Positions 1-49,880 of a stretch of DNA of 64,000 bases are shown here, in pieces; positions within the stretch are counted from its first letter, which is position 1, and each line of letters opens with the position of its first letter. Source of the DNA: an uncultured Gammaproteobacteria bacterium (GTDB lineage: Bacteria; Patescibacteriota; Patescibacteriia; UBA1558; S5-K13); assembly GCA_964640635.1 (NCBI GenBank), contig CAZXFD010000003.1, positions 65,149 through 129,148 of the forward strand, given 5' to 3'. Both the position numbers and the translations under genes were made by a program. Under the pieces are notes generated by a model, which was not told where the DNA came from, did no database searches, and saw nothing but the letters and a program-made list of their open reading frames with translations.

Positions 1-57
1 TAGTTACATAGCCAATTACTGTTTCAGCTAAATAGCTAAGCAACTACGAAGCTAATT

Positions 58-1455: not shown

Positions 1456-1476
1456 TTAGTTTTTAGTAGTTAGTAT

Positions 1477-1869
1477 TTAGTCTTTAGTGTTATGCGTAAT
1501 TTGATACGTTAATTTATTGAGAATTTTTCGTATTTCTATTAGTAGTAATTCTATTTCTGTATATTCATCTTCGTTCCCGAAATTTAGTAATTTTCCTATT
1601 TCTAATTGAGTTTCGAGTTCAGAACTAGATGCGTAGGCTATTAGTAAAAATCTTCTAAATTCATTTCTTGTAAATCTTGACTGACCTTCTGCAATATTTG
1701 AAGGTATTGATATCGCACATCTTTTTATTTGACTAGTGAGTCCAAACTGTTCTGATTTTGGGTACTTGTCTGTTAATTTATAGATTTTAATCGTCAATTG
1801 TATTGCTTTTTGCCAAACGATAAAATCCTTATATGAGGTTATCATAAAGCGCTTTTCTTTAATTGTCAT
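1477..1869 (-). CDS. four-helix-bundle protein (TIGR02436-like, the so-called 23S rRNA intervening-sequence protein family)
   Basis: 130 aa; family-typical IPSNIAEG ... SSSELETQL pattern; stop lies 21 bp upstream of the dnaA start on the same strand; paralog at 56059..56439. Confidence 0.6.
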   Translation of the reverse strand: MTIKEKRFMITSYKDFIVWQKAIQLTIKIYKLTDKYPKSEQFGLTSQIKRCAISIPSNIAEGQSRFTRNEFRRFLLIAYASSSELETQLEIGKLLNFGNEDEYTEIELLLIEIRKILNKLTYQITHNTKD

Positions 1870-1995
1870 TTCGTAAGTAATTAGTATTAGTAGAGTTTAT
1901 CTAAATACTAAACCCTAATAACTAAATACTACCCTTATTTTATACTATTTTTACAACTAATGGAATAGGCCTAATTATGCTAAAAGTGCATAAAG

Positions 1996-2054
1996 TGTGA
2001 ATAAGTGTGGATAATGTTTAGAGTTTAGTATTTAGGGTTTAGAAGTGTGAATAA
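1996..2054. promoter_or_regulatory. three DnaA-box-like 9-mers (TGTGAATAA, TGTGGATAA perfect, TGTGAATAA) in the same orientation, upstream of the four-helix-bundle/dnaA operon
   Basis: reverse complement of TTATCCACA consensus read at 1996..2004, 2006..2014, 2046..2054. Confidence 0.4.
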
Positions 2055-2079
2055 TTTAAGGAAAATAAAAAACCGCCAG

Positions 2080-2460
2080 CAATTAAACCAGCGGTTAAAT
2101 AAATTAATTTCAGGGTCCTCTCATTTTTAACCCCTTTGAGTTCTTGTATGCTGATATGGTTGTCCAGGGATTGGACCGTCAGCAGCTTGTTGATTTTCGT
2201 AGGGACTTAATTATCCCCTATTTCTTGAGCTCTACTCCGGAGGGACACTTTAACCGCTCGTCAAAGTGTATAGGGTTGTTTTTGTTATAGTGCAAACCCT
2301 TCATTAAGTGGGTAGAATCACTTAATGTTAACGCACTCAAGTAATTCGTTTAATTCGTTTCATTTTTCCTCCAAAGGCAATAATCGGTGATTAACGTCGG
2401 ATTTGGCCAGCTCTAAGCGCAACTTTTACCGTTGCTTTCTGGAATTCTTATCGGCCAAGA
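2080..2460. other. GC-elevated (about 42%) ORF-poor region with several stem-loops; candidate structured RNA or long leader of the dnaA operon
   Basis: no ORF of 60 aa or more; local GC clearly above the roughly 30% background; hairpin aaccgc...gcggtt at 2081..2110; a tiny minus-strand ORF (MKRIKRIT) follows a GGAGG site. Confidence 0.25.
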
Positions 2461-2465
2461 GTTTA

Positions 2466-2687
2466 TTAGTTATTGATTTTGATGATGTGTCTCGGGGTTT
2501 TTACTATTAAGGATAAATGGAATAATAGTATGTATGCCCAAAGAGTAAGATTGGTCCATTCTTTCATGGGAATCTTGGAGAAATCTCCTACGCTTATTAT
2601 CTCTTGAATACTGAAGATTATTCCAAATACTGCTATTGCAATAAGGAATATCCCACAAATGATGCCTATGACGTCTAATCTTGTCAT
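2466..2687 (-). CDS. small membrane protein (two predicted TM helices)
   Basis: 73 aa ORF; GAGGAG site 6 nt upstream of ATG; hydrophobic segments. Confidence 0.45.
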   Translation of the reverse strand: MTRLDVIGIICGIFLIAIAVFGIIFSIQEIISVGDFSKIPMKEWTNLTLWAYILLFHLSLIVKTPRHIIKINN

Positions 2688-2716
2688 TTTAACTCCTCGT
2701 CCTATAAAAGGATTTT

Positions 2717-2971
2717 TTATGATTCTTCTTCATTGGCGCAGTGGCTACAGTAATTACTATAGCACTTTGTGCCATCGGTCGTGTTACACGACATGCATGC
2801 CTCTGAGCAGGAGCAGGTCTTATGGATAATCTCAGAGGTTCCAGCACTTTCGATATGATATACTTCTCCACAGGAATTGCAAATCCTGTGGTGTATCTCT
2901 GAGGTTTCAGAGATAAACTCTTTACACACGATGCAAGGATTTTCCTTTTTTTCATTCATTATTTCAAGCAT
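2717..2971 (-). CDS. cysteine-rich small protein (14 Cys in 84 aa, CxxC and HHxxCxxC motifs), probable metal-binding
   Basis: 84 aa ORF; GGAG 7 nt upstream of ATG; preferred over the overlapping alternative-frame ORF 2689..2955. Confidence 0.5.
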   Translation of the reverse strand: MLEIMNEKKENPCIVCKEFISETSEIHHRICNSCGEVYHIESAGTSEIIHKTCSCSEACMSCNTTDGTKCYSNYCSHCANEEES

Positions 2972-3357
2972 TTTTTCTCCAAAGTCGCTTTATATTTTTG
3001 TCTTTTAGCGACTCAATCCCCTCAAGCGGGTCACGTATCTTGTATATTCTTTGGAGAATTATTTAATTACTTTACAGCAATCAAAGCAGTGCAGAGATAA
3101 GGTTTTATTTATGGCCTTGTCTTACGTAATTACCATTTATTATCATCACCCAAGGGTTAAGATAAAGTAATATTGTTTGACATTTTTAAAATTTGCCATG
3201 TCTTGCCTTATTTATTTTCTCTATTTTAAGCCAAATCCGATCCATAAAAGATAAGAAATAGCTTTGTGTATAGTTCCCTCCGCACTATTTTGATTGCTGT
3301 TTGTTTTTTATCTCGGCCTAGCTTTAGCGAAGCCGGATATTTGTCAATGAACCAGGT

Positions 3358-3465
3358 TAATATAGTAGTATAGCACATTAAGTGTGTATTGTCAATAGTG
3401 ATTGGCTGACTATCTAGATTAACATAATAGTATAGCATAATACATGTATATTGTCAATATCAATG
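3358..3465 (+). repeat. two imperfect (about 80%) direct repeats of about 47 bp, each containing a TTGTCAAT core; a third core at 3341..3348
   Basis: aligned by eye: ttaatatagtagtatagcacattaagtgtgtattgtcaatag versus ttaacataatagtatagcataatacatgtatattgtcaatat. Confidence 0.4.
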
Positions 3466-3536
3466 AATTAACAAAAAACCACCAACACTTTTTAATGTTG
3501 ATGGCTAATTTTTAGAAATTAATGTTTTGGAACTGT

Positions 3537-4094
3537 TTAATCTATTTTTGCAAAAACGATTTCTTTGCAATCTATCTGACAGGCTTTTAGGTGCGCATAG
3601 AACGAAGCTTCTTTAAAAATGTCTGGCACGTCATCTAAGTCTCCCTCGAAGTATATTTTTTTAGAAATTTGAATCTCATCACTAAAAAATTCTATGGCCA
3701 AACACTCTATCAGCACTTTTGATCCAGGACAATAAGCGGTTATTTTGATAAAAGGTTTGCTTAGCACAAAACAAGCGTGAAGATTGTTAGCCCTTAATTC
3801 TTTGAAATAAAATAAGGGTTTAATTTTTTGGCCTCGAGTTGTGCAAATTATTGTTGATTGTCCATTTTCTCCATCTCTCCCACCAGATTCATATTCACAG
3901 ACATTCACTTCGCACATGCCTTTAAATAGATACTCTGATAAATAGTATGGAATTTTGTATATAAGATTATTCTCTTGAGATTGTTTTAATTCTATTATTA
4001 AAGCATCTTTTACTTTTCTGTGCTTAAATCCAAAAACATCAAGCTTATTGCAAATAGCTACAGTATAATTAGGTAGTTTTAATTCTATAGTCAT
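3537..4094 (-). CDS. hypothetical protein
   Basis: 185 aa ORF followed by a hairpin plus T-run terminator at about 3475..3512. Confidence 0.55.
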   Translation of the reverse strand: MTIELKLPNYTVAICNKLDVFGFKHRKVKDALIIELKQSQENNLIYKIPYYLSEYLFKGMCEVNVCEYESGGRDGENGQSTIICTTRGQKIKPLFYFKELRANNLHACFVLSKPFIKITAYCPGSKVLIECLAIEFFSDEIQISKKIYFEGDLDDVPDIFKEASFYAHLKACQIDCKEIVFAKID

Positions 4095-4313
4095 TGTTCC
4101 TCCCCTATGGTTATATGAGAATTATCATACTATTTGAATTTTTTTTGTCAATTATATGTAGTGATACATTTTAAGTATGATATAATAAATATATGTTAAA
4201 AGATAAAACATTATTTTTAATAGTTATATTTATTGTTTTCCTTGTTATTGCTTTTGCAAGATTTTCTTCATCGGAGGATAGTTGGATTTGTGAAAATGGA
4301 AAATGGATAAAAC

Positions 4314-4790
4314 ATGGAAATCCATCATCACTTGTTCCAACATCTGAGTGTAAATAAAATTTTTATGGAAAATGACGAATTAAATAAAGAAAATAAATTT
4401 CTTTCTCTTAAGACGGGGAAGTATTTTTTGGGATATGCTTTTGTCGGCGGTCTCTCAAATTCTGTAGAAATAGGATTGTTATTTTTGTTGGTAGAGATTT
4501 TTGGAGTTTATTATCTTATTGCCTCAACAAGTGTTTTTATTTTTGGATCTATACTTACTTTTATAGGAAGAAAATTTTTTGTATTTAAAGATAAAAATTT
4601 AAAAAACATACTTAGACAATTTGCTAAATATGTTTTTATGTTTGTGATAGGTATAGTATTAAATTTTTTTATAATGAGATTTTTTGTAGAAGGTTTGAAA
4701 ATTCATTATGTTTTTGCTTACATAATATCTATTCTTATAACAGGAATTATTGGTTTTTTATGGAATAAAGAAATAACCTTTAAGAGTTAG
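4314..4790 (+). CDS. GtrA-family membrane protein (polysaccharide biosynthesis associated)
   Basis: four TM segments; C-terminal FLWNKEITF resembles the GtrA signature; true start may be an internal Met. Confidence 0.55.
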   Translation: MEIHHHLFQHLSVNKIFMENDELNKENKFLSLKTGKYFLGYAFVGGLSNSVEIGLLFLLVEIFGVYYLIASTSVFIFGSILTFIGRKFFVFKDKNLKNILRQFAKYVFMFVIGIVLNFFIMRFFVEGLKIHYVFAYIISILITGIIGFLWNKEITFKS

Positions 4791-5190
4791 TTGCTTTTCT
4801 GTTTATCATCGTTTCATATTCATTCTCGATGAATTTTTTCATTTTTAGATCATCTTCTACAAATCTTTTTATTTTTGGATCTTTATCTATATTTTCTTGA
4901 GTATAATCGCTAAATACATGTTCTCCTTCAATTGGTGAAGATCCGGAGATTATATGATATAGAGTATGTTTTCTTAATTCGTCTTCGGGCGTATTTTTTA
5001 GATTGTTTTTAAGAAATATTATTGCTTTTTCTATGATATCAAAACCATAATAATCTCCTAGGTCTTTAAGCATTTCATAAAGCCTTTTTATTTCAGGTTT
5101 TTCATATTCTCTTTTTATCGTTTTTGCTTCGTCACTTATTTTTTTTATGATTTTTTCTTCTTCGGGTGTTAGACTTATTTTTTCATTCAT
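4780..5190 (-). CDS. hypothetical protein
   Basis: 136 aa ORF; overlaps the upstream dgkA-like gene by 4 bp (ATGA), suggesting an operon. Confidence 0.5.
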   Translation of the reverse strand: MNEKISLTPEEEKIIKKISDEAKTIKREYEKPEIKRLYEMLKDLGDYYGFDIIEKAIIFLKNNLKNTPEDELRKHTLYHIISGSSPIEGEHVFSDYTQENIDKDPKIKRFVEDDLKMKKFIENEYETMINRKATNS

Positions 5191-5576
5191 AATATTTTCG
5201 GCAAGAAAATTATTATTCCTATGATAGCTGCAATCACTGAAACAACAAGAACGGCTCCAGCTGACACGTCCCTAGTTCTTGTAGTTTCACTATATCCAAG
5301 ATTTAATTTGTCTCTTGTGATATTTGCAAGTTCTTCTATAGATGTATTTATCATCTCAAGTGATATTACAAGCCCTATTAACAAAAGTATTATAAACCAC
5401 TCTACTTTAGAAAGGCTTAAAAAAAATCCAAGTAATATGATTATTGTTCCTACAAAAAAATGAAATTTGATATTTCTTTCTTTTGATGCAGAAACAATTC
5501 CACGATACGCAAATAAAAATGCTAAAAAGAACTTATTTAACTTGCTAGATATTTTATTATTATTCTTATTTGGCAT
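5187..5576 (-). CDS. dgkA: diacylglycerol kinase / undecaprenol kinase family (DgkA-like) membrane protein
   Basis: 129 aa, three TM segments; conserved SLEMINTSIEELANITRDK ... RDVSAGAVLV pattern of prokaryotic DAGK. Confidence 0.7.
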   Translation of the reverse strand: MPNKNNNKISSKLNKFFLAFLFAYRGIVSASKERNIKFHFFVGTIIILLGFFLSLSKVEWFIILLLIGLVISLEMINTSIEELANITRDKLNLGYSETTRTRDVSAGAVLVVSVIAAIIGIIIFLPKIL

Positions 5577-5601
5577 GTGTTTATTATAAGTATGTAATTA
5601 A

Positions 5602-6081
5602 TCAGTATACTTTTATTTTTACATCAGCAATGCCTGCTCTGTCAATTCCTAGTATTTTTGCACCAGCATAGGATAGATCTATTTCAGCTAGATATTTTTT
5701 TGTAGTTTTGCTTTTTGAGTATGGTCCACGATCGCTTACTATTGCATCTATTGCTTTTCCATTTTTCATGTTTATAACTTTTATTTTTGTGCCTAGTGGA
5801 AGAGTTCTGTGTGCTACAAGTGCAGAGTCAAACATATCAAATTTTTTACCATTTGCCATTTTTTTTCCATGAAATGCTTTTCCATACCACATAGCACGCC
5901 CGAAAATTATTTCTATTGGAAAGCTATTTGATGTTATTTGAGGTGTTGTAGTAGCAATGTTTACATTTGTAGTTGAAGAAGCAGTTGCTTCCTGTGCCCT
6001 TGTTTGGGTATAATAAAGTAAGAAGTAGCAAAAGCTAATTAAGAGAAAAAGGATATAAATTTTGTGTTTGTTTATTTTCAT
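5602..6081 (-). CDS. RlpA-like double-psi beta-barrel (DPBB) domain protein with signal peptide
   Basis: C-terminal AMWYGKAFHGKKMANGKKFD ... GTKIKVINMKNGKAIDAIVSDRGPY matches the RlpA/DPBB fold; ORF-track entry 5602..6330 is over-extended; ATG at 6079..6081 gives MKINKHKIYILFLL signal peptide. Confidence 0.7.
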   Translation of the reverse strand: MKINKHKIYILFLLISFCYFLLYYTQTRAQEATASSTTNVNIATTTPQITSNSFPIEIIFGRAMWYGKAFHGKKMANGKKFDMFDSALVAHRTLPLGTKIKVINMKNGKAIDAIVSDRGPYSKSKTTKKYLAEIDLSYAGAKILGIDRAGIADVKIKVY

Positions 6082-6101
6082 TAATACATAATAGCATAAA
6101 T

Positions 6102-6569
6102 ATGAACAATTTTCACGAAGTTTCACAAATAAGAAAAGAAGAACAAAAAGATATTTTTGACGAACCAGAAAAACAGGTTGATTCAGAGGTAATAAGTAAA
6201 CAACAATTAGATAATTTAGATGATTATGTAGATCAGTTAGCAGAAACTGATTTTGAGCACGAGTTTGAAGACGAGATAAGTGAAGAAACGGCAAGGTTAA
6301 ATGAATATGAGTTAAGAGAAGACGAGCCATATGCAGTAATAGTAAACAAGACAGAAAAAAGGGGAAAAAAGGAAAAGAGTGGAAAAGAAAAATACGAGCT
6401 TTATAATAAGGCTCATGGATCTTCAGAGGATGAATACCTAGGTCATGTTTGGGCTAGTAGTCCAGCACAAGCTCTTTTATTGGGGCATAAAAAGAATTTT
6501 AATATGACGGAAAGAACTATTTCTCGTGCTACTGGAATATTTTATAAACCAGAGAAAAAACAGGTGTAG
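6102..6569 (+). CDS. acidic hypothetical protein
   Basis: 155 aa Glu/Asp-rich ORF in an otherwise empty interval; followed by a hairpin. Confidence 0.45.
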   Translation: MNNFHEVSQIRKEEQKDIFDEPEKQVDSEVISKQQLDNLDDYVDQLAETDFEHEFEDEISEETARLNEYELREDEPYAVIVNKTEKRGKKEKSGKEKYELYNKAHGSSEDEYLGHVWASSPAQALLLGHKKNFNMTERTISRATGIFYKPEKKQV

Positions 6570-6582
6570 TTATTTTACATTC

Positions 6583-6625
6583 AAAAAAAAGAACCGTCGG
6601 ATCATATGACCCGGCGGTTTTATAT
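6583..6625. terminator. bidirectional intrinsic terminator between convergent genes
   Basis: gaaccgtcgg ... ccggcggtt hairpin flanked by A-run and T-run. Confidence 0.4.
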
Positions 6626-6642
6626 TTGTTTTTTGTTGTTTT

Positions 6643-7356
6643 TTAGACTGTAGCCTCTAATTCTAAGAAGCGTTTAATGGCCATCGGAATGATGGGGTCT
6701 CTATGGTGATATACCAAGGTGGGGTCATTTTTGACTATTTCCCAATCATACCACCTTGACCCCCCGGCTTCTATTATGCCCTCGGGGTCTACGAGGTAGA
6801 CAAGAGAAACATAAGGCCCTCTTTCTTCGTCGGGGGTGTATTTGATCCCGACAAAAGTATATCCCGTTGAATGAAAACCTTCGACTCTACTCAATCTATC
6901 AAATTGGGTTTGAGGCGCAGGTTTGTTCGCATCCGAAGAGCGAAGTCCTGTTCCGGGGCAGTGGAGCTCATTGGGATATGCAGCCTCATCTGCGGCACGT
7001 CTGGCAAGAAATACTTCTATTTTTCCTGTTTTAGGATTTCTCCTTATAGCAACGCCCTCTATCGCAGGAGTCCACCAATATGGGGACATGACATTGAAAA
7101 GGTCTGTCCCAAAGGGCTTTTCCGGATTAAGAAAGGGCATAAGTATTGTAAGGATTTTTTTGATTGCTTCTTGTGCGCTTTCATTTTCCCAGACTTTTCT
7201 CATTAGCTTTCCAAAGACAGGATCTCTCCTAGTCTTTGGTTTCAGATGCTCACCATTTTCCATAAAGGATAAGAATTGTTCATCCTCTTTTTTTGAAAAC
7301 AGTGACAGTATGATACGATGAAACTCATCCAAGAGCTTCGATGATCCAATAATCAT
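6643..7356 (-). CDS. hypothetical protein encoded by a GC-rich (about 45%) gene
   Basis: 237 aa ORF; base composition clearly deviates from neighbours; no confident family assignment from sequence alone. Confidence 0.55.
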   Translation of the reverse strand: MIIGSSKLLDEFHRIILSLFSKKEDEQFLSFMENGEHLKPKTRRDPVFGKLMRKVWENESAQEAIKKILTILMPFLNPEKPFGTDLFNVMSPYWWTPAIEGVAIRRNPKTGKIEVFLARRAADEAAYPNELHCPGTGLRSSDANKPAPQTQFDRLSRVEGFHSTGYTFVGIKYTPDEERGPYVSLVYLVDPEGIIEAGGSRWYDWEIVKNDPTLVYHHRDPIIPMAIKRFLELEATV

Positions 7357-7463
7357 TTTTAGTTCCTCCTATATTTTTGGATTTTCATATAAAATTAGCA
7401 CATTATATACTCTTTGTCAACGCTAGGTGTTTAAATAAAAAAACGGGTATGAATTTACCCGTT

Positions 7464-7835
7464 TTAAGTTTTAAGAAGACTTTTAAGACCCCCAATGAAA
7501 TCTCCTTTGTGGACAGGCTTTCTTAGAATAATATTGTCCTTAGAATTTTTTTCGTCAGGAATGTAGTTCGTGCAAATCATGATTCGAGTTTCTGGAGAAA
7601 TACGCATTATTTCTTGTAAGAATGCATTTCCGCAATCATGTGTTTTGTCCTCACATCTCTCGTCTGGCACATATTCTGTGACAAGTATTTGCACAGAGTT
7701 TTCTTTTAGAAAGTTAAGAACATCTTTCGTTTCTGAAAATTTGAATATCTTAGCGTCTTTATAAAAAGTAGATATAAATTTCTCATAAACGTTTCTGACA
7801 CCCTCGTTACGTTCAAATATAACTATCGTGATCAT
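7464..7835 (-). CDS. stand-alone receiver-like (CheY-fold) protein with acidic-pocket substitutions
   Basis: 123 aa; pattern VIFERNEG ... ILVTEYVPDE ... IMICTNY ... LRKP mirrors REC beta-alpha layout, but the phospho-acceptor Asp position reads Glu. Confidence 0.45.
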   Translation of the reverse strand: MITIVIFERNEGVRNVYEKFISTFYKDAKIFKFSETKDVLNFLKENSVQILVTEYVPDERCEDKTHDCGNAFLQEIMRISPETRIMICTNYIPDEKNSKDNIILRKPVHKGDFIGGLKSLLKT

Positions 7836-7927
7836 TGTTCCTCCTAATCTCGATTAGATGCATACTAATACACTTATTAATTTTTGTCAAATAAAAAAAT
7901 AATAAGATACTTTTAACCTTTTATAAT

Positions 7928-8191
7928 TTACTTTGTTATTACACAGCTCTTTGCAACTATGCCGTAGAGTTTGTTTAATATTTTTGTGAGATCATTTATT
8001 TGTTTTAATCCACCCTTTACAACTATTGTTATAATTCCTGAGCAATTTGATATGCAACGTGGCTCTATGTTTACGCCAAGCCTCGTAAGTATGATATGTC
8101 CATTTTCTGAAAGTGTTTTATTTAGTTTTTCGGAATTCACTTGTCTATTTGTAACCATTATTGTAATTGTTCCTAAATGTTGTTTTTGCAT
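7928..8191 (-). CDS. small ACT/ferredoxin-like-fold protein resembling the TM1266 putative-regulator family
   Basis: 87 aa; GHIILTRLGVNIEP ... GIITIVVKGG resembles TM1266-type proteins; weak. Confidence 0.35.
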   Translation of the reverse strand: MQKQHLGTITIMVTNRQVNSEKLNKTLSENGHIILTRLGVNIEPRCISNCSGIITIVVKGGLKQINDLTKILNKLYGIVAKSCVITK

Positions 8192-8329
8192 ATTATTGGT
8201 TTCATAGTTACTTAGTTTCGTAGCTATGGAGTTAAAATTGATGATATAATTAAATTTATTATATCATTAAAAAGATTAATAAAAAATATGCGCTAAAATT
8301 AAAAAGTACTTTATCCACAGCCTTTATTA

Positions 8330-8358
8330 TTGACAAGGTGTTTATATGGTTGTAATAT
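8330..8358 (+). promoter_or_regulatory. near-consensus sigma70-type promoter TTGACA-17-TAATAT, preceded by a perfect DnaA box TTATCCACA at 8311..8319
   Basis: hexamers and 17-bp spacer read directly; about 30 bp upstream of AAGGAGG plus ATG of the 8390 gene. Confidence 0.45.
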
Positions 8359-8389
8359 CTTTTTATGCCTATTCTAATAAGGAGGAAAA

Positions 8390-8668
8390 ATGGCAAATCA
8401 AAATGGAGATAGTGGAGCAAATATTGCTTTAGCTGAAGTGGAGACAAATTTCTCACAGAAACAACAAGGATTCAAGGATGGGAATGTTTTTGACAATCCA
8501 TTTGACGGAATCTCAGCACAGGAATGCGTTGTGTTTATGCGCGATATTTTAGACAATCCGGAAATCTCTTTAGAATTAAAGGATATTAGGATTACTCAAC
8601 TACAAAATATGAATCCGCAAGGATTGCGCCTGTGTTATCAAGAGAGTGTATTGCCTCACAAAACCTAA
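8390..8668 (+). CDS. hypothetical protein
   Basis: 92 aa ORF; strong RBS AAGGAGG; hairpin downstream. Confidence 0.5.
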   Translation: MANQNGDSGANIALAEVETNFSQKQQGFKDGNVFDNPFDGISAQECVVFMRDILDNPEISLELKDIRITQLQNMNPQGLRLCYQESVLPHKT

Positions 8669-8920
8669 CCTAATCTCAGTTCAATTTTACCGTCCACAGT
8701 CAAATGACTTGGGCGGTTTTTATTTTGCAAGCCGTCTTTTTATTTTTTGTTAATATTTTTTTGTTTGTAAATAGAGCTTAATATTAAAAAAGGCACCATT
8801 CTTTTGTGGTGTCACATTTTTTGTTTATTAAGAGATTGTTTTTAGATAATTAAAGATGTAAAAAATAAGAGTGTTTATGGTTTTTGGATTACTAGACTTT
8901 TAATCTAGTTTTAATTCTAA

Positions 8921-9108
8921 AACCAAAACCCCGCATAAAGCGGGGAGTTGGCGAAAAGCGATTTATGAAGCGTGGTCTCGTTTAAAGCGAGATTGGCCTC
9001 TTATTTTTATTATAATTTAATGAATTTATTTGTCAAGTTCTTGCGATAATGGACCACGCCTTGTAAATGTATCTAATAATTAATCAGCTAGTTATATAGC
9101 TGGCCAAA
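8921..9108 (+). other. hairpin-rich non-coding region upstream of ssb (possible leader or small RNA)
   Basis: ccccgcataaagcgggg, tctcgtttaaagcgaga, long-range gcgtggtc/ggaccacgcc pairing, ccagctagttatatagctgg. Confidence 0.25.
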
Positions 9109-9114
9109 AAAAGT

Positions 9115-9504
9115 ATGGATGTAAATAAAATTACATTGCTAGGCAGAATTGTAAATGATCCGGTAGTGAAAAAGACAAAAACCGGAAAAGATTTAACAAG
9201 TTGCTCTTTTGCAACAAACCTTATTTGGAAAAGCGCAAAGGGCGCTAACACGACAAAAGAAGTAGAGTTTCACAATCTTATTTTTTGGGGACCAATAGCT
9301 TCTATCGCTGGCAAGTATCTAAAAAAAGGAGATAGAGTCTATGTCGAGGGAAGACTTAGAACAAGAAAATGGGAAGACAAAAACAAGGTAATGCACTACA
9401 AGACGGAAGTTATTGTGGGGGAGCTTGTGATGCTCGGTGGAAAAAAAGCAGAGCAAACAGCAAAAGAACTTGCTGTTGAAGAAATTATTGTTGAAGAACA
9501 ATAA
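9115..9504 (+). CDS. ssb: single-stranded DNA-binding protein
   Basis: 129 aa OB-fold: ITLLGRIVNDPVVKKTKTGKDL ... HNLIFWG ... GDRVYVEGRLRTRKWEDK; acidic C-terminus. Confidence 0.85.
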   Translation: MDVNKITLLGRIVNDPVVKKTKTGKDLTSCSFATNLIWKSAKGANTTKEVEFHNLIFWGPIASIAGKYLKKGDRVYVEGRLRTRKWEDKNKVMHYKTEVIVGELVMLGGKKAEQTAKELAVEEIIVEEQ

Positions 9505-9603
9505 CTCTTATGTTTCACTTGGCGTTTTTTGATTCAACTTCGGCCGTTGATAAAAAAGCGCCAAGTAGAAACAATGATTTAAATTTTTAAATTTTATAAT
9601 TCT

Positions 9604-12141
9604 ATGTCAAATTATTCAAAAAGTTTATATTTTATTTTATTAATAATTTTCTTTTTTTCACTTTTGATATTTATAAATATTACTAGAGCTGAGGGAATAA
9701 TTTTTTCGGAAATAATGTATGATCCAGTAGGATCTGATTCTGGCAATGAATGGATAGAGCTTCTTAATAAAACAACAAGCAGTATATCTATTGGATCGGA
9801 TTGGAGATTAAGCGACTCATCAAATCACTTGATAAATTTTTATAATGGCCCAACAAGTGTTTGGCCAGGAAGTTTTTTTGTAATAACTCAAAATGCTTCA
9901 AATTTTTTAAATAATTACCCAAACTATACAAGTCTTTATAGGCCACTTTATGAATCTTCTTTTTCTTTGAATAATGCTTCTGGAACAATAAAATTATTTC
10001 AAGGTTCAAACTTAATAACAGAACAGGGATATACATCGGTAATTGGTGGAAATGGAAATGGAAAAGCATTAGAGAGAGTAACTCCTCAATTTAATGATAA
10101 TGTATGGACAGAAGGATGGGTAATTGGTGGAACCCCAGGAAGTCTTTCTAATACGCCACCGACTCTTTATGCACCAATTCCTATAATAAAAGTTTCTACT
10201 ACAACAATTTACGTGGGGAATAGTCTATTATTTGATGCGAGTTCTTCAACCGATCAAAATGGAGATACTCTAAATTATCTTTGGAATATTGGAAATATTG
10301 CAAGTTCAACAGATCAAATTTTTACATATTGTTTTCTAAATTCTGGGACATATAACGTATCTCTTACTGTTTCAGACGCTACTTCATCAAATACAGCAAA
10401 CGTAACAATAAATGTTTTGGAAAATGACATAGAAATTCCCTTGATTAATTATACAGGGAAAATTATATTAAATGAGCTATTGCCTAATCCCGAAGGAGAC
10501 GATGATGGTGAATGGATAGAATTAAAAAATATATCAAGCGATGATATTGATCTAACAGATTTTTTAATTCAAGATGAGTCTGGAAGAGATTATCTCATAT
10601 CTCCAGATGATTTTTCTACAACAACAATAAAGGCAGGAGAATTTTTTGCAATTGACTACACTATTTCAAGAATCATCTTAAATAATACCGGAGACAAAGT
10701 TACTATTTTTGATAATAATGAAAACAAAATCTCAGAAATTTCTTATTCTAGTGTAAAAGAAGGACAATCTTTTGCTAGATTTACTAATTCTTGGAATTGG
10801 ACTACTAGTCCAACAAAAGGCTTAGAAAATGTTTTGACAGAAAGCACACAAGAATCTAGTTCCGTTACAATTATTAATAATACTACAAACAATACGAGTG
10901 ATATCACAAAGCAAGATGATATTATCTGTGATTTAAATAGTTTAAATAAAAGCATTGTTATCTCTGAAATTTTTCCAAATCCAGTAGGTGATGATACCAA
11001 AGAATTTATAGAAATTTATAATCCAAATGATTATGATATAAATATTAGCAATTGGAAAATAAAAGATTTGTCGTCGTCATTTTTTAAATTAACGGGCTTG
11101 ATAAAGTCAAAATCATATTTTCTTATATCAAGAGAAGATTCCAAACTCGCTCTCAATAATTCTAAAGAAGAGATTTTTATTTATGATTGTAAGGATGTTT
11201 TAATAACAAATTTAAAATATGACAAGTCATACGAGAATCAGTCATATTCTTATAACTTATTAAACAAAGAATATTTTTGGACAAAAAACACGACACCAGG
11301 AGAAGAAAATATTTTTGATATTAAAGAAGATGTGGACAGTAAAGAAATAGCCACCTCGACTATTATAGAAGAACTTTATAAAGACGAAGAAGAAGCAATG
11401 CAAGAATATTCAAGTGTATTTTTTAATGAGCTTTCCCAAAATGAAACTGTTATTGGATACGGAGCTATTGTTTTGACTCAGAATAAAATTTCAAATAACT
11501 CAGCGTATATTTGTAACTATAAATTACAAGAAAAAATTGTTGATTATTATGATTGTATAAATTTATATTTCAATGGAAAGTGGCCAGCTATTAAAAGAGG
11601 TTCAATTATAAAGTTCAGCGGAAAGTTTTCACAAAGCGCAAGTTCTAAAAAAATCAAAATTTCAAAAAAAGAAAATATTGAAGTTGTAGATTCTGTAAAA
11701 TTATTGAGTCCGGATGAAATTTTAATTAGTAACATAGATGAAGGATTACTAGGATCTTTTATTTCTATAAAAGGAAAAATTTCTAAGTTAAATCAAAAAA
11801 GTTTCAATATTAAACTTGATGAAGAGGAATTTAAAATAAAAATTGTCACAAAGGATATAGACTTAAAAAGTTTTATTAAAGAAGAAAATGTTTTCGTAAG
11901 TGGGATAGTTTTGAAAGAAAAAGATTCTTTTATTTTGGCACTTGGCAACAAGAGCGATCTCATTAAAGATTTACAGGTAGAAGAAAATATAGATATCTTG
12001 GGAGAGAAAATAGAGAGCAAAGAAACTATTAATCTAGTTGAAGATAAAGAAAGCTTTTTTATAAAAATAGTTTCTAATATAGGAAAATTTTTTGGCTCAA
12101 TTAGAAGTAGTTTTGTGAATAAACTTTTCGCATCTAAATAA
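9604..12141 (+). CDS. large secreted/surface protein with three lamin-tail-domain (LTD) repeats and a PKD-like domain
   Basis: 845 aa; N-terminal signal/TM; LTD signatures FSEIMYDPVGSDSGNEWIELLN, LNELLPNPEGDDDGEWIELKN, ISEIFPNPVGDDTKEFIEIYN; PKD-like YLWNIGNIASSTDQIFTYCFLNSGTYNVSLTV. Confidence 0.8.
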   Translation: MSNYSKSLYFILLIIFFFSLLIFINITRAEGIIFSEIMYDPVGSDSGNEWIELLNKTTSSISIGSDWRLSDSSNHLINFYNGPTSVWPGSFFVITQNASNFLNNYPNYTSLYRPLYESSFSLNNASGTIKLFQGSNLITEQGYTSVIGGNGNGKALERVTPQFNDNVWTEGWVIGGTPGSLSNTPPTLYAPIPIIKVSTTTIYVGNSLLFDASSSTDQNGDTLNYLWNIGNIASSTDQIFTYCFLNSGTYNVSLTVSDATSSNTANVTINVLENDIEIPLINYTGKIILNELLPNPEGDDDGEWIELKNISSDDIDLTDFLIQDESGRDYLISPDDFSTTTIKAGEFFAIDYTISRIILNNTGDKVTIFDNNENKISEISYSSVKEGQSFARFTNSWNWTTSPTKGLENVLTESTQESSSVTIINNTTNNTSDITKQDDIICDLNSLNKSIVISEIFPNPVGDDTKEFIEIYNPNDYDINISNWKIKDLSSSFFKLTGLIKSKSYFLISREDSKLALNNSKEEIFIYDCKDVLITNLKYDKSYENQSYSYNLLNKEYFWTKNTTPGEENIFDIKEDVDSKEIATSTIIEELYKDEEEAMQEYSSVFFNELSQNETVIGYGAIVLTQNKISNNSAYICNYKLQEKIVDYYDCINLYFNGKWPAIKRGSIIKFSGKFSQSASSKKIKISKKENIEVVDSVKLLSPDEILISNIDEGLLGSFISIKGKISKLNQKSFNIKLDEEEFKIKIVTKDIDLKSFIKEENVFVSGIVLKEKDSFILALGNKSDLIKDLQVEENIDILGEKIESKETINLVEDKESFFIKIVSNIGKFFGSIRSSFVNKLFASK

Positions 12142-13646: not shown

Positions 13647-13904
13647 ATGCAACAGAACAAGAAATTACAAGAAAGTTTTTATAAAAAAATATTGAGTTTA
13701 AAAAACAAAAAAGATTTGACTCATTTTTTTAATAATTTTTTTTCGCAAAACGAATTAAATGAGCTTACAAATAGGTTTTATGTTGCAGGTCTCTTAAACC
13801 AAAACATTTCTTATATTAAAATACAGGAGAATACAAAAATAAGTTCTCGTACAATTGCAAAAATTTCCAAGATTGTAAAAAATAAAAGAAACAACTTTTT
13901 ATAA
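13647..13904 (+). CDS. TrpR/YerC-YecD-like helix-turn-helix protein (putative transcriptional regulator)
   Basis: 85 aa; central NELNELTNRFYVAGLL and SSRTIAKISK resemble the TrpR-like fold; weak. Confidence 0.4.
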   Translation: MQQNKKLQESFYKKILSLKNKKDLTHFFNNFFSQNELNELTNRFYVAGLLNQNISYIKIQENTKISSRTIAKISKIVKNKRNNFL

Positions 13905-13979: not shown

Positions 13980-14025
13980 AATGTTCCACGTGGAACATTA
14001 TGCTATTTTTTGGCTTGTATAAAGC
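13980..14025 (+). promoter_or_regulatory. operator/promoter copy 1: perfect 20-bp palindrome AATGTTCCACGTGGAACATT plus TGTATAAA extended -10
   Basis: palindrome at 13980..13999 read directly; GGCTTGTATAAAGC at 14012..14025; about 85 bp upstream of the 14108 gene. Confidence 0.6.
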
Positions 14026-14653: not shown

Positions 14654-14673
14654 AATGTTTCACGTGGAACATT
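14654..14673 (+). promoter_or_regulatory. operator copy 2 (one mismatch: AATGTTTCACGTGGAACATT), followed by TTGTTGACT
   Basis: read directly; about 100 bp upstream of the 14771 gene. Confidence 0.5.
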
Positions 14674-15273: not shown

Positions 15274-15318
15274 AATGTTCCACGTGGAACATTTTATAGT
15301 TTTTTAGCTTGTATAAGC
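15274..15318 (+). promoter_or_regulatory. operator/promoter copy 3 (perfect palindrome plus GCTTGTATAAGC)
   Basis: palindrome 15274..15293; extended -10-like element 15307..15318; no ORF of 60 aa or more downstream. Confidence 0.55.
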
Positions 15319-15391: not shown

Positions 15392-15437
15392 AATGTTCCA
15401 CGTGGAACATTATGCTATATTCTGGCTTGTATAAGCC
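15392..15437 (+). promoter_or_regulatory. operator/promoter copy 4 (perfect palindrome plus GGCTTGTATAAGCC)
   Basis: palindrome 15392..15411; 15424..15437; no ORF of 60 aa or more downstream. Confidence 0.55.
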
Positions 15438-15976
15438 AATTTAGTAAAAGTATATTATGAGGTTAAAGAGCTTTTGCTCCTCGACTCTATTTTGACTCAC
15501 TATGTTTGTTCAGTGTCGCTCGAGGTTGTTTTTCATTAAATTAGTTTTTGGGTTGTTGTTTATGAAGATGTTTGATTAACTTTACGAGCTTTGTCAAAAC
15601 AAAAAACTCCCCAGAAGATTTTTTTCTAAGGAGTTTGCACTCCCCAACATTAGGCCTATTACCAAGCAGATGAGCTTAATAATTTCCAGTTACATTCTTA
15701 TTTGAGAAGCATTAATTTTTTTGCAAATAGTCTCTTTTTTCGTATGGTTTTTTATTTATTCTCACCATTTTGGTAGGAAATAAATTTTATTGTGTTTTAT
15801 TTTTGTTTTTCGATTAAAAAGATAATTTGCTATTTTTTCTCTATTACAATTATAGCATTTTTTGTAATTGGGGTCAACAGTTTATATTATGGCTTAAAAT
15901 GGAGAAAATATAGAGTATATTAATATATTAATTATGACATATTAATACACTAAAGTCAAACGTATATTAACATGCC

Positions 15977-16090
15977 TGTGGATAAGTCTGTGGATATGTT
16001 GTTAGCCGTGGGGATAACTATTTGAAAGCCCAATATTTATAGTATTAAAAAAGTGGATAATTCTGAACATGGATATGGGCTTGGGATAAG
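15977..16090 (+). promoter_or_regulatory. cluster of six DnaA-box-like 9-mers in the same orientation (TGTGGATAA perfect, TGTGGATAT, GTGGGGATAA, GTGGATAAT, CATGGATAT, TGGGATAAG), 3' of a roughly 250-bp tract of about 20% GC
   Basis: read directly at 15977..15985, 15989..15997, 16008..16017, 16053..16060, 16069..16077, 16082..16090. Confidence 0.45.
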
Positions 16091-16315
16091 CAGCAAGAAA
16101 TGAATAGCATGTTGATCTTTGTGTTACTAAATATATTAATCAAGTATCGAATAATTTTTTGTATTTTAGAGATATGTGAATAAGTTTATGTAGTCTATAA
16201 ATTAGTAGAATTTTTTCATTTACTATGATAAAATGTATTTATAAATTTTATTTATGAAATGTTCAGCTATGCTTACTATATTAAGACGTTAGTGAGCGAC
16301 TGGACAAAAAACAAA

Positions 16316-17347
16316 ATGGAAATAAATAGTTTATTAAAAGAAGCTGTTGAAAAAGGTGCGTCAGATCTTCATTTGGCAGTAGGACATAATCCCATTATAA
16401 GAATTGATGGAGAAATGATAGAATTAGATAGTTACGGAGAAATATCTGTTACAGAGAATAAAAAAATGATTGATAGTATTTTGACAGTGAATCAAAAAAA
16501 GAAATATCAAGACGAAAGAGAGTTGGATTTATCTTATGAAATAAATAAGGTTGGAAGATTTAGAATAAATTTATTTTGGGAAAGAGATAATCCAGGACTT
16601 GTTGCAAGAATTATAAATCATGAAATTCCAGAACTTGAAGATATTGGATTGGGTGAAGTTGTTTTGAAAATGCTAAAACAAAAACAGGGACTTATACTTG
16701 TTACTGGTCTTACGGGAAGTGGAAAGTCAACTACACTTGCCTCTATGGTGAATTATTTGAATAAAAATGATTCTTTAGCAATAGTTACATTAGAGGATCC
16801 AATAGAGTATCTTTTTCCAAAATCAAAAAGCATAATTGCTCAAAGAGAATTAGGATCTGATATGCTTAGTTTCGCAGAAGGATTAAGACATGTATTAAGA
16901 CAAGATCCAAATGTTATTATGGTAGGAGAAATGAGAGATTTAGAATCTATTGCATTAGTTTTAACGCTTGCGGAAACAGGACATTTGGTTTTGGCTACAA
17001 TTCATACACCAAGTGCAGCACAAGTGGTAGATAGAATAATAGATGTTTTTCCAGCCTACCAACAGCAACAAATTAGATTACAGTTTGCAACTATTTTAAC
17101 GGGTGTAATATCTCAACAATTGTTGCCAAAGAAAGGCGGAGGAAGAATTGCTGCAAGAGAGGTATTATTAAACACCCCAGCAGTTTCAAACATTATAAGA
17201 GAAAACAAAATCCCACAGATAAAAACAGTTCTTCAAACTAGCGCAGACAAAGGCATGATGACAATGAATCAGTCAATTAAGTCTCTCTATGAAAATGATT
17301 TAATAGATAAAGATATTGCAAAAAGTTATTTTGTCGAAGAAGATTAA
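16316..17347 (+). CDS. pilT: type IV pilus retraction ATPase PilT
   Basis: N-terminal MEINSLLKEAVEKGASDLHL; Walker A GLTGSGKSTTL; GEMRD and ATIHT motifs; start moved to Met 16316 from the ORF-track 16259. Confidence 0.85.
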   Translation: MEINSLLKEAVEKGASDLHLAVGHNPIIRIDGEMIELDSYGEISVTENKKMIDSILTVNQKKKYQDERELDLSYEINKVGRFRINLFWERDNPGLVARIINHEIPELEDIGLGEVVLKMLKQKQGLILVTGLTGSGKSTTLASMVNYLNKNDSLAIVTLEDPIEYLFPKSKSIIAQRELGSDMLSFAEGLRHVLRQDPNVIMVGEMRDLESIALVLTLAETGHLVLATIHTPSAAQVVDRIIDVFPAYQQQQIRLQFATILTGVISQQLLPKKGGGRIAAREVLLNTPAVSNIIRENKIPQIKTVLQTSADKGMMTMNQSIKSLYENDLIDKDIAKSYFVEED

Positions 17348-18704: not shown

Positions 18705-18792
18705 GCTAGAGTGGTGGAACGGTAGACACGCAAGCTTGAGGGGCTTGTAGGAAAATTTTCCTGTGGAGGTTCAAATCCTCTCTCTAGCACCA
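18705..18792 (+). tRNA. tRNA-Leu (anticodon GAG), long variable arm, encoded CCA
   Basis: manual fold: acceptor GCTAGAG/CTCTAGC, anticodon stem CAAGC/GCTTG, loop TTGAGGG, variable arm AGGAAAA/TTTTCCT, T arm GGAGG-TTCAAAT-CCTCT, discriminator A; the listed ORF 18623..18814 is spurious. Confidence 0.8.
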
Positions 18793-18836
18793 TTCTAATT
18801 TTGAAATTTATCATTTGATATTTGTAATTTAATCAG

Positions 18837-18913
18837 GGGTCCTTGGCTCAGTTGGTTAGAGCGTCTCGTTTACACCGAGAAGGCCATAGGTTCGAATCCT
18901 ATAGGACCCACCA
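18837..18913 (+). tRNA. tRNA-Val (anticodon TAC), encoded CCA
   Basis: acceptor GGGTCCT/AGGACCC, D arm GCTC-AGTTGGTTA-GAGC, anticodon loop TTTACAC, T loop TTCGAAT. Confidence 0.85.
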
Positions 18914-19095
18914 TTCGACTCATTCCGCTTTGCGGAATTCGCTCATGGTCTTCATTCCGCTCTGCGGAATTACGACCATACTCATTATATAAATGAGTCG
19001 AATGCCCTGAGTTTATCGAAGGGCACGAGAAAAACGTTTTCCATTGGAATCGAGTGTCCTGAGCGAAGTCGAAGGACAGAATAATAAAATCATAT
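18914..19095 (+). repeat. cluster of nested and duplicated hairpins between tRNA-Val and the GIY-YIG gene
   Basis: two copies of attccgcTTTgcggaat-type hairpins, tcgactcat/atgagtcga and catggtc/gaccat inverted repeats, and two cctgag...tcgaagg units. Confidence 0.35.
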
Positions 19096-19398
19096 ATGTC
19101 ATTCTTTGTTTATATTGCCAGGTGTAAGGATAAAACCCTATATACTGGGTATTGCAAGGATTTAAAGTCTAGAGAGAATAAACATAATATAGGAGAAGGC
19201 GCAAAGTATACTAAGTATAGAGTGCCTATAAAAATCATATATTCTGAAGAATTTGAAATTAGGAAAGAGGCAATGGCAAGAGAAAGACAGATTAAATCTT
19301 GGACTAGAAATAAAAAAGAAAATCTGATAAAATATAGAGACTCTGAAAATATCAAATTTTCAATTCCCAATGTCAAATCAAGTCATAAGATCAAATGA
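19096..19398 (+). CDS. GIY-YIG nuclease superfamily protein (YhbQ/UPF0213-like)
   Basis: FFVYIARCKDKTLYTGYCKDLKSRENKHNIGEGAKYTKYRVPIKIIY is a classic GIY-YIG core. Confidence 0.75.
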   Translation: MSFFVYIARCKDKTLYTGYCKDLKSRENKHNIGEGAKYTKYRVPIKIIYSEEFEIRKEAMARERQIKSWTRNKKENLIKYRDSENIKFSIPNVKSSHKIK

Positions 19399-19474
19399 CA
19401 TAAAATTGGACATTATAAATTTGAGTTTTGAAATTTATTTGTAATTTGAAATTTGTCATTTGAAATTAAATTAG

Positions 19475-19551
19475 GGGCTTGTGGCTCAGCTGGTTAGAGC
19501 ATCTGCTTTGCAAGCAGAGGGTCGTGGGTTCGAATCCCACCAAGTCCACCA
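19475..19551 (+). tRNA. tRNA-Ala (anticodon TGC), G3:U70 identity pair, encoded CCA
   Basis: acceptor GGGCTTG/CAAGTCC with G3-T70 wobble, anticodon loop TTTGCAA, T loop TTCGAAT. Confidence 0.85.
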
Positions 19552-19558
19552 TCAAAGA

Positions 19559-19586
19559 ATCTCTCCCAAAAAGGAGAGTTTTTTGT
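19559..19586 (+). terminator. intrinsic terminator after tRNA-Ala
   Basis: ctctcccaaaaaggagag hairpin plus TTTTTT. Confidence 0.5.
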
Positions 19587-19643
19587 TTGACAAAATATTT
19601 TTATATTGATAGTGTTTATTAAAGTTTATAATACGGAGGAAGC

Positions 19644-19955
19644 ATGATAAAAGTAGGTGATCATTATTATCCAAGTAGCATAGAGGATTATCTAAAAATA
19701 TTTTTAGATATGAGAGATAACCATTCAAATGAATTGCCAGATGTAGATGTTAGAATATTGGATGGGTTTGATAAAGACAGTAAATCTATTATTAGATGTA
19801 AATATAAGTGTCGGGGCAATTATATATTTGGTTTATCCTTGAGACTTGAGGCGGTTGTAGTGAAAAAACTAGTCACTGACATTGGGCTTATTAAAAAAAT
19901 AAAGCAGTTTAGAAATCACGATTTCAGGTTTTCTCATGGGGAATTTACGACTTAA
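19644..19955 (+). CDS. hypothetical protein
   Basis: 103 aa; RBS GGAGG. Confidence 0.5.
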   Translation: MIKVGDHYYPSSIEDYLKIFLDMRDNHSNELPDVDVRILDGFDKDSKSIIRCKYKCRGNYIFGLSLRLEAVVVKKLVTDIGLIKKIKQFRNHDFRFSHGEFTT

Positions 19956-49020: not shown

Positions 49021-49158
49021 ATGCCAAAGCGAACATTTCAACCAAAAAAGATAAAAAGAGCCAAAAGACATGGTTTTATGCAAAGAATGTCTAGTGTTGG
49101 CGGCAAAAGAGTGTTGTCTAGTAGACGTGCAAAGGGTAGAAAAAAACTTAGCGCCTAA
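49021..49158 (+). CDS. rpmH: 50S ribosomal protein L34 (45 aa, below ORF-track cutoff)
   Basis: translation [45 protein letters not shown] matches the bL34 consensus. Confidence 0.9.
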
Positions 49159-49162
49159 ATTT

Positions 49163-49558
49163 ATGCTTGCTAAAAAATTTAGAATAAAATTTAAAAAGGA
49201 CTTTGATAATATATTAAAGTCGCGAAATAAATTTTTTAGTAATAATTTCAGCATAAAATTTTATCCAAATTATCAGGATATAAGCAAGTTTTCTATAGTT
49301 GTTTCAACAAAAATTTCAAAGAAAGCAACGGTAAGAAATCAACTTCGAAGAAGAATATTTGAAATTTTAAGACTTAAAATGCCAAATATAAAATCTGGAT
49401 ATAGTGTTATGATATTTGCAAAACAGGGCGCTATATTATTAGATTATGAAAATTTAGAGCAAGAAATCTTTTATCTATTAAATAAGTCTAGGTTACTTAA
49501 ATATGAAAAAGATACTCTTAAAGATTATAAGAATTTATCAAAAAACCATATCTCCTGA
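49163..49558 (+). CDS. rnpA: RNase P protein component
   Basis: starts [15 protein letters not shown] 4 nt after the rpmH stop; [28 protein letters not shown] matches the RnpA RNR-like motif; ORF-track entry 49070 is over-extended. Confidence 0.8.
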
Positions 49559-49736
49559 TCATGGATTTTTTGCATATAAACATCCCGCTGGACTTTGTAG
49601 ATATTATCCAAGTTGTTCGCAGTATGGGTACAATGCTATTTCAAAACATGGCGTTATGCAGGGCTTGTTTATGACAGTTAAGAGAATTCTAAGATGTAAT
49701 CCATTTTCAAAAGGAGGATATGATCCGGTAGAATAA
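49503..49736 (+). CDS. yidD: membrane protein insertion efficiency factor YidD
   Basis: [19 protein letters not shown] ... [16 protein letters not shown] signature. Confidence 0.8.
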
Positions 49737-49880
49737 TTTTCAATTTTAAATTTTCAAATGATTTATTATTTATGTATTTGTAAATTCTAATAGTAAATAT
49801 ATAAATAATAAATTAATAACAAAATCAAAAATAACAAATAACAAATAACAAATCTCGCTAAGCGAGATAAATAAAACAAT

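Follow-up and report, generated by a model that had tools for sequence, protein, structure and literature searches.

An origin-proximal, probably non-origin DnaA-box cluster between a candidate sRNA gene and the pilT operon in Patescibacteria

Introduction

The datA locus of Escherichia coli works together with IHF, promotes the hydrolysis of ATP-DnaA and lies hundreds of kb away from oriC. A Bacillus subtilis study summarises datA as a set of about five high-affinity DnaA boxes outside oriC and as a proposed trap for DnaA after initiation (PMC3245932). B. subtilis itself carries six DnaA-box clusters (DBCs) outside oriC, most of which are oriC-proximal and some of which regulate neighbouring genes (PMC3245932), and deletion of all six results in early initiation (Okumura et al. 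2012, PMC3245932). The Bacillus-type origin is bipartite and includes a basal unwinding system (BUS; PMC8287927, PMC6669920), in which a DnaA box is followed by a spacer, a DnaA-trio run and an AT-rich stretch, with the trio run located within 16 bp of the box (PMC8287927). In bipartite origins of the B. subtilis / H. pylori type, the two halves flank dnaA within ~2 kb. A small non-coding RNA gene beside initiator-binding DNA near the origin has its closest analogue in CcnA, an origin-proximal cell-cycle ncRNA of Caulobacter crescentus (PMC8959179), whose likeness to the present locus goes no further than analogy.

Here we analysed a 64-kb stretch of DNA (hereafter "the window", at its full length) in which a preliminary description had proposed an AT-rich tract and adjoining DnaA boxes as a candidate replication origin or, failing that, as a DnaA titration site or DnaA-regulated promoter. 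To our knowledge, no experimental study has addressed replication control in CPR/Patescibacteria. The locus shares with the B. subtilis DBCs the intergenic co-location of DnaA boxes outside, yet near, the origin region and upstream of genes that vary between species, and is likewise compatible with regulation of neighbouring genes and with negative control of initiation. It differs in its occurrence in Patescibacteria, in its box number (three conserved, five to six in total) and in a clade-specific candidate sRNA gene alongside. In contrast to datA, which is hundreds of kb from oriC, the cluster lies only ~16 kb from the probable origin.

Results and discussion

A dense cluster of co-oriented DnaA boxes upstream of pilT

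The window has a GC content of ~30% (30.5%), and the source names on homologues of its DnaA and PilT, where given, are Patescibacteria (CPR). Between 1.4 and 8.2 kb most of its genes are encoded on the minus strand, and from 8.4 kb onward most are on the plus strand. The box cluster is located in an unusually long non-coding gap of ~1.1 kb between an AlaE-family gene (end at 15214) and pilT, the first gene of a downstream pilT-NTP-transferase-rplS operon (Table 1). A pilT start 170 bp downstream of the boxes (16259) had been assumed initially, but homologues of 342-349 aa place the start codon at 16316, i.e. 299 bp past the three-box core.

All boxes match TTATCCACA on the minus strand, which reads TGTGGATAA on the plus strand, in one orientation throughout. 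Four boxes with at most one mismatch fall within 84 bp, five with at most two mismatches within 113 bp, and six within 207 bp. The earlier count of six boxes in 115 bp thus stands with respect to a co-oriented cluster but not with respect to its density, as five boxes with at most two mismatches occupy 113 bp; the sixth candidate box, CATGGATAT near 16068, has three mismatches. Among 1000 first-order Markov sequences modelled on the window, the maximum of same-strand boxes (at most one mismatch) per 100 bp was two, compared with four observed, and at least four boxes in 250 bp were reached in 2 of the 1000 simulations, compared with five observed. Only two clusters with at least three boxes per 300 bp occur in the 64 kb, namely the 15.9-kb cluster and an array at 1996-2054, and the window contains only three perfect boxes, box 1 among them. 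We conclude that the cluster of DnaA boxes is genuine, as its density far exceeds chance.

Another perfect TTATCCACA box is present at 8311-8319, in a 198-bp divergent intergenic region where gene orientation turns from minus to plus. One or two boxes with one mismatch are retained at the counterpart position in the related loci L004 and L006, and the skew polarity at codon position 3 (see below) is unchanged there.

Table 1. Positions of the features discussed; coordinates refer to the window unless a related locus is named.
Feature	Coordinates	Strand	Basis or comment
dnaA	58-1455	-	Pfam
Three DnaA boxes (1996, 2006, 2046)	1996-2054	-	upstream of IVP-dnaA operon
Palindrome TGTTCCACGTGGAACA, four copies	13982-13997, 14656-14671, 15276-15291, 15394-15409
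Candidate structured sRNA, ~245 nt	15598-15845	-	conservation, folding, promoter, terminator
sRNA intrinsic terminator	15604-15636	-	13-pair stem, then T run; conserved in L089, L093
sRNA promoter (TTGACC, 17 bp, TGcTATAAT)	15849-15877	-	near-consensus by promoter scan
AT-rich spacer, sRNA promoter to box 1	15880-15976	.	97 bp, 21.6% GC
Conserved motif TGGCTTAAAAT	15890-15900		within AT-rich spacer
Three-box core	15977-16017	-	box, 3 bp, box, 11 bp, box
Box 1, TTATCCACA	15977-15985	-	0 mismatches
Box 2, ATATCCACA	15989-15997	-	1 mismatch
Box 3, TTATCCCCA	16009-16017	-	1 mismatch
Box 4, TTATCCACT	16052-16060	-	1 mismatch; lineage-specific position
Box 5, TTATCCCAA	16081-16089	-	2 mismatches, weak box
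Box 6, TTATTCACA	16175-16183	-	1 mismatch
Putative extended -10 (TGATAAAAT) of pilT-NTP-transferase-rplS operon promoter	16226-16234	+	inferred, read from sequence
pilT, type IV pilus retraction ATPase family	16316-17347	+	Pfam T2SSE, E = 8.5e-49
rpmH-rnpA-yidD-yidC cluster	49021-50636
Core box starts in L089	9663, 9675, 9695
Core box starts in L093	1362, 1374, 1394
dnaA-dnaN spacer in L004	11398-11742		probable unwinding module

Conservation of the cluster in related lineages

Comparison with two related loci, L089 (GCA_964634645.1) and L093, whose PilT proteins are 73% and 74% identical to that of the window, revealed an identical start spacing of boxes 1 to 3 (+12, +32) in all three lineages, while no positional counterpart of box 4 was found in L089 or L093. 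As the left-hand neighbour gene in L093 differs from that in the window, the conserved unit consists of the sRNA gene described below, the boxes and pilT. A more distant relative, contig Ga0675942_0000121 (loci L091 and L092; DnaA 62% and PilT 70% identical), carries a five-box cluster upstream of GT2-pilT genes, 16.3 kb from the dnaA start, although the genes between dnaA and the cluster differ from those of the window. The last of these boxes are positioned 35-50 bp before the GT2 start codon, and the sRNA is absent from L091, so that the sRNA link is not universal. A search for PilT in genome contigs yielded only relatives of at most 61% identity; since the box cluster is absent upstream of pilT in these 80 more distant Patescibacteria loci, a connection with pilT, if there is one, is restricted to the clade. 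We also considered an integrated plasmid or phage replication module and rejected it, as the locus is syntenic in three lineages and carries no mobile-element genes.

Several further features of the neighbourhood were recorded. A perfect 16-bp palindrome, TGTTCCACGTGGAACA, occurs in four copies within 1.4 kb (0.01 expected by chance), which flank a 141-aa ORF and the AlaE-family gene and neighbour a Trp_repressor-family gene at 13647-13904. It is also found in L089 near 9046 and in L091 near 8815, and adjoins box arrays in the metagenome loci L169 and L173; the copies may be operators for the Trp_repressor-family regulator or bidirectional terminators. Downstream of the cluster, genes for tRNA-Leu, tRNA-Val and tRNA-Ala at 18705-19955 are interleaved with a small GIY-YIG-domain ORF (19096-19398), and two GIY-YIG ORFs each are present at the matching place in L089 and L093.

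The AT-rich tract is largely a candidate sRNA gene

The tract at 15700-15960, put at about 20% GC in the preliminary description, has a measured GC content of 21.5%, which places it in the lowest 2.8% of 261-bp windows, although the window has ~20 further places of equally high AT content. Its interpretation as an unwinding element did not hold up, because most of it belongs to a conserved minus-strand candidate sRNA gene with its own promoter and terminator. The promoter matches 11 of 12 consensus positions and additionally carries the TG of an extended -10 element, and both hexamers are invariant in L089 and L093. From promoter to terminator, the DNA is 75-80% identical to L089/L093 and hence conserved like the neighbouring coding DNA (~70% DNA identity for pilT and the next two genes); in L089 the sRNA region reaches 80% nucleotide identity where the PilT protein is only 73% identical. 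The flanking non-coding DNA shows no comparable match to these loci except for the box array and the palindrome, and no conserved ORF was found in the sRNA region when the window and its relatives were compared. Compared with shuffled controls, the RNA has a more stable predicted fold (z = -3.4 and -4.6), and a consensus structure across the three lineages comprises 61 pairs, four of which show compensatory changes.

Searches against Rfam at the gathering threshold assigned no family to the sRNA, and a relaxed search (E up to 5) gave chance-level matches only, the best of which (E = 0.24) lies outside the sRNA. A covariance model built for the sRNA retrieved no further homologues from 0.99 Mb of related loci. 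A metagenome scan with a 20-mer from the sRNA returned no match either, with a pattern that was too strict, as even L093 differs in it. We therefore regard 15598-15877 as a candidate clade-specific sRNA gene with its promoter, as judged from these signals. Since gene and promoter cover most of the proposed unwinding element, only the spacer at 15880-15976 is left as possible unwinding DNA.

A conserved motif within this spacer, TGGCTTAAAAT, was examined as the basis of a rightward promoter, which was rejected because a -35 element and a properly placed TG are missing and L089 has an 11-bp insertion. A second non-coding stretch, at 2055-2470 on the minus strand, is GC-rich for this genome; it is bordered by a small ORF on one side and by the box array that precedes the dnaA operon on the other. 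The stretch shares 79% identity with L004, ends with a minus-strand terminator near 2100-2060, contains no ORF and gave no Rfam match; it may represent another structured RNA.

The probable origin lies in the dnaA-dnaN spacer

An origin, or a second or alternative origin, formed by the cluster and its AT-rich flank and displaced 14.5 kb from dnaA is one alternative explanation. Near-consensus boxes are as numerous at the cluster as at the dnaA-flanking regions and include a perfect one, the intergenic region is unusually long, and next to box 1 there is a 97-bp spacer with 21.6% GC whose length is conserved, with AT-rich DNA on the 5' side of the TGTGGATAA boxes. This orientation, with AT-rich DNA 5' of a TGTGGATAA-type box, is also that of R1/DUE in E. 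coli and of the BUS in B. subtilis. The position of the trio motifs, the polarity of nucleotide skew and the organization of the dnaA region in relatives, however, argue against this reading.

The permissive BUS rule (.A.){3,} was found to be non-discriminating in a T-rich genome, where random coding sites outscore real origins, and was therefore replaced by a run of at least four preferred trios, ([CT]TA). One such run is present in the 64-kb window and none in the region from 15.2 to 16.3 kb, where the 15.9-kb cluster offers only three NAN triplets, the permissive minimum that is expected at chance level. In the relatives, by comparison, each dnaA-dnaN spacer examined (L004/L005, L006/L007 and L092, with DnaA 96%, 76% and 62% identical to that of the window, respectively) contains one run of at least four ([CT]TA) repeats in matching place and orientation. 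The gene dnaN follows dnaA after 300-380 bp in all of these loci, and in L004/L005 and L006/L007 the spacer presents three to four boxes, tandem boxes, a 4-bp spacer, (TTA)4-5, an AT-rich stretch and dnaN, in this order. This is the arrangement of the Bacillus-type BUS, in which the repeats correspond to 3'-AAT-5' trios (PMC8287927, PMC6669920). The L092 spacer has the trio run and the AT-rich stretch, but no good box adjoining them.

In the organism itself, the dnaA-dnaN spacer begins immediately left of window position 58 and continues outside the window. Exact-sequence look-ups with DnaA, the IVP protein and a 242-aa ORF gave no match, and flanking DNA was recovered via other genes. One of the two short-read assemblies of the organism (SRR10083310), L003, is 100% identical to window positions 1-11964, reaches 133 bp further left and ends inside the dnaA-dnaN spacer. 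This flank (11965-12097) contains three boxes with at most one mismatch and a fourth with two, just past the dnaA stop codon.

Because gene orientation confounds plain GC skew in 1-kb windows, we used instead the G/C skew at codon position 3 of each gene (GC3 skew), referred to the plus strand. Within the window, 63 of 70 analysed genes have G>C on the plus strand, on both sides of the cluster; they include the minus-strand genes from dnaA to 8.2 kb as well as the plus-strand genes flanking the cluster. A sharp flip is seen on the 40-kb contig Ga0675942_0000121 between dnaN (-0.51) and dnaA (+0.09): rpoC to dnaN, six genes in all, have negative values throughout (-0.20 to -0.51), whereas to the right, beginning with dnaA, 34 of 36 analysed genes have positive values irrespective of their strand, the other two being at 0.00 and -0.04. 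The skew remains unchanged at the pilT cluster of the same contig. L004 likewise flips at dnaA/dnaN, and L089 shows no flip at its cluster, with the reservation that GC3 skew is noisy in L089, as it is in L006. As far as can be judged from these relatives, the switch in polarity is thus found at dnaA-dnaN and not at the cluster. This is the skew result that the preliminary description had named as speaking against an origin at the cluster.

The smaller three-box array at 1996-2054 noted in the preliminary description was confirmed. It is situated, as stated there, directly upstream of the four-helix-bundle/dnaA operon, in which dnaA is preceded by a 23S_rRNA_IVP-family gene (Pfam). Relatives retain only one to three weaker boxes upstream of this operon, and the array is an ordinary dnaA-promoter or oriC1-type array. 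Based on the relatives and the 133 bp of the organism's own flank, the most probable start site of replication is the dnaA-dnaN spacer just beyond the left end of the window, which together with the 1996-2054 array resembles an ordinary bipartite origin region of the Bacillus type. The 15.9-kb cluster does not belong to this region: it is separated from the dnaA start by 14.5 kb and ~15 genes and from the dnaA-dnaN spacer by ~16 kb, unlike the halves of bipartite origins, which flank dnaA within ~2 kb, and it has neither a trio run nor a skew switch. Both proposals, a displaced origin at the cluster and a bipartite origin that includes it, are thus not supported. The few metagenome contigs among the matches listed in which the three-box array does lie in dnaA-dnaN or rpmH-dnaA regions (see below) are in favour of an origin; with a constant GC3 polarity at the site (window, L089 and the Ga0675942 contig) against a flip at dnaA-dnaN, chance-level trios, a tract made up mostly of the sRNA gene, and a canonical box/trio/AT-rich module conserved in the dnaA-dnaN spacer of relatives, we regard an origin at the cluster as very improbable.

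The displaced position of rpmH-rnpA-yidC was also borne out, in the form of an rpmH-rnpA-yidD-yidC cluster 47 kb from dnaA, which in Ga0675942_0000121 directly adjoins dnaA (L092 6903-8443). This difference indicates that the origin region has been rearranged in the lineage of the window. The pilT box cluster stayed ~15 kb from dnaA despite the rearrangement.

Putative divergent promoters around the cluster

The cluster is flanked by two divergent units, the sRNA gene reading leftward and the pilT operon reading rightward. The putative extended -10 of the latter aligns with TGATACAAT in L089 and L093, and box 6 precedes this element by ~43-51 bp and the inferred transcription start by ~60 bp. 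Box 1 and the sRNA -35 are separated by 100, 101 and 102 bp in the window, L089 and L093, despite compensating indels. From the core array it is 100 bp to the sRNA -35 and ~210-250 bp to the pilT -10, which is far for classical repression, and the array overlaps neither core promoter.

Given this arrangement, the cluster could be an operator that acts only on transcription of pilT, the sRNA or both and has no part in initiation control. The position between divergent promoters, the box 1 to -35 distance held at 100-102 bp despite indels, the last boxes of L091 35-50 bp before the GT2-pilT genes, and the array orientation relative to the downstream gene, which is kept at the mraZ-type loci described below, would all be in line with it. 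On the other hand, the core array overlaps neither core promoter in the window, operator and titration functions are inseparable by sequence, and the same clusters of B. subtilis do both (PMC3245932). A function confined to transcription is therefore possible, yet on balance unlikely.

The three-box array is widespread in metagenomes

A metagenome query with the exact pattern TGTGGATAA-N3-TGTGNATA-N12-TGNGGATAAC recovered the three-box array in at least 120 contigs of 26-63% GC (loci L095-L214), so that the array is a widely reused, generic cassette. Among the 120 matches listed, nine have flanking DNA, as retrieved, that includes a homologue of dnaA or dnaN, with the array beside it in most of them; few of the listed arrays lie inside dnaA-dnaN or rpmH-dnaA regions, and most are away from dnaA. 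The three-box array is thus not diagnostic of an origin, while its occurrence in oriC-type contexts supports DnaA as its binder. Some of the listed contigs contain 32-bp-periodic tandem arrays of the unit, and pilT is absent from the contigs among the matches listed.

In 37 of the 120 matches listed, mraZ follows directly downstream of the array, which is preceded there by AAGTGGGGAAT. At these mraZ-type loci the array lies downstream of a promoter-like site and is oriented with respect to the following gene as it is in the window. Such an arrangement suggests a possible DnaA-mraZ link between replication and division or, alternatively, an overlap of DnaA and MraZ operators.

MraZ operators in model bacteria consist of GTGG/TGGG direct repeats with a period of roughly 10 bp. 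The repeats of the cluster might accordingly only resemble DnaA boxes and have as their main binder another protein, one specific for direct repeats with GTGG, e.g. an MraZ-like regulator, as the identical array immediately upstream of mraZ in 37 of 120 listed contigs, after AAGTGGGGAAT, would suggest. However, the full 9-mer TGTGGATAA is conserved in all copies beyond GTGG, the array has repeat periods of 12 and 20 bp, unlike those of MraZ operators, this lineage has the same boxes both at dnaA-dnaN and in front of dnaA, the array is found in oriC-type contexts elsewhere, and mraZ is absent from the window. A main binder other than DnaA thus appears highly unlikely.

Proposed function of the cluster

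The locus combines several near-consensus boxes with an intergenic, origin-proximal position and evolutionary conservation, as known non-origin clusters do. We therefore consider it probable that it is a non-origin cluster of DnaA boxes close to the origin, flanked by divergent promoters, which would act as a DnaA operator, a DnaA sink, or both. Binding of DnaA to the cluster, a regulatory effect and titration are predicted from its sequence and conservation; of the two fallbacks in the preliminary description, titration site and DnaA-regulated promoter, both are favoured by the evidence and neither stands out over the other.

In a possible mechanism, the three-box core, in which box 1 and box 3 are 32 bp and hence ~three helical turns apart, would nucleate a short DnaA oligomer that two to three lineage-specific boxes could extend, and bound DnaA may then modulate the sRNA promoter, the pilT promoter, or both. 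A site near the origin would be replicated moments after initiation, and because its copy number would double early, the cluster could also serve as a DnaA sink, similar to what has been proposed for the oriC-proximal DBCs of B. subtilis and for datA of E. coli.

Retraction of type IV pili is driven by pilT and, in nucleotide-auxotrophic episymbionts such as Patescibacteria, brings about DNA uptake and host attachment. With considerable reserve, one may speculate that DnaA in this clade acts as a transcription factor at the three-box cassette and couples initiation status to the sRNA and the pilT operon, and that the array is a widely reused DnaA-assembly cassette that, where it precedes mraZ, as it does in dozens of uncultured bacteria, links initiation to the division gene cluster.

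Conclusion

DnaA-box clusters outside oriC are already known, and the present locus is probably one in a phylum with uncharted replication control; no current model is overturned by these findings. The case illustrates that an AT-rich tract next to DnaA boxes is insufficient for calling an origin, and provides a clear candidate for the true unwinding site in the form of the dnaA-dnaN spacer with its (TTA)n trios. The analysis also yielded a candidate for a new sRNA family and a three-box DnaA array that is widely reused; as this array precedes mraZ in many uncultured bacteria, initiation and cell division may be directly linked. For the reduced genomes of CPR bacteria, the locus represents a concrete, conserved and predicted non-origin target of DnaA.
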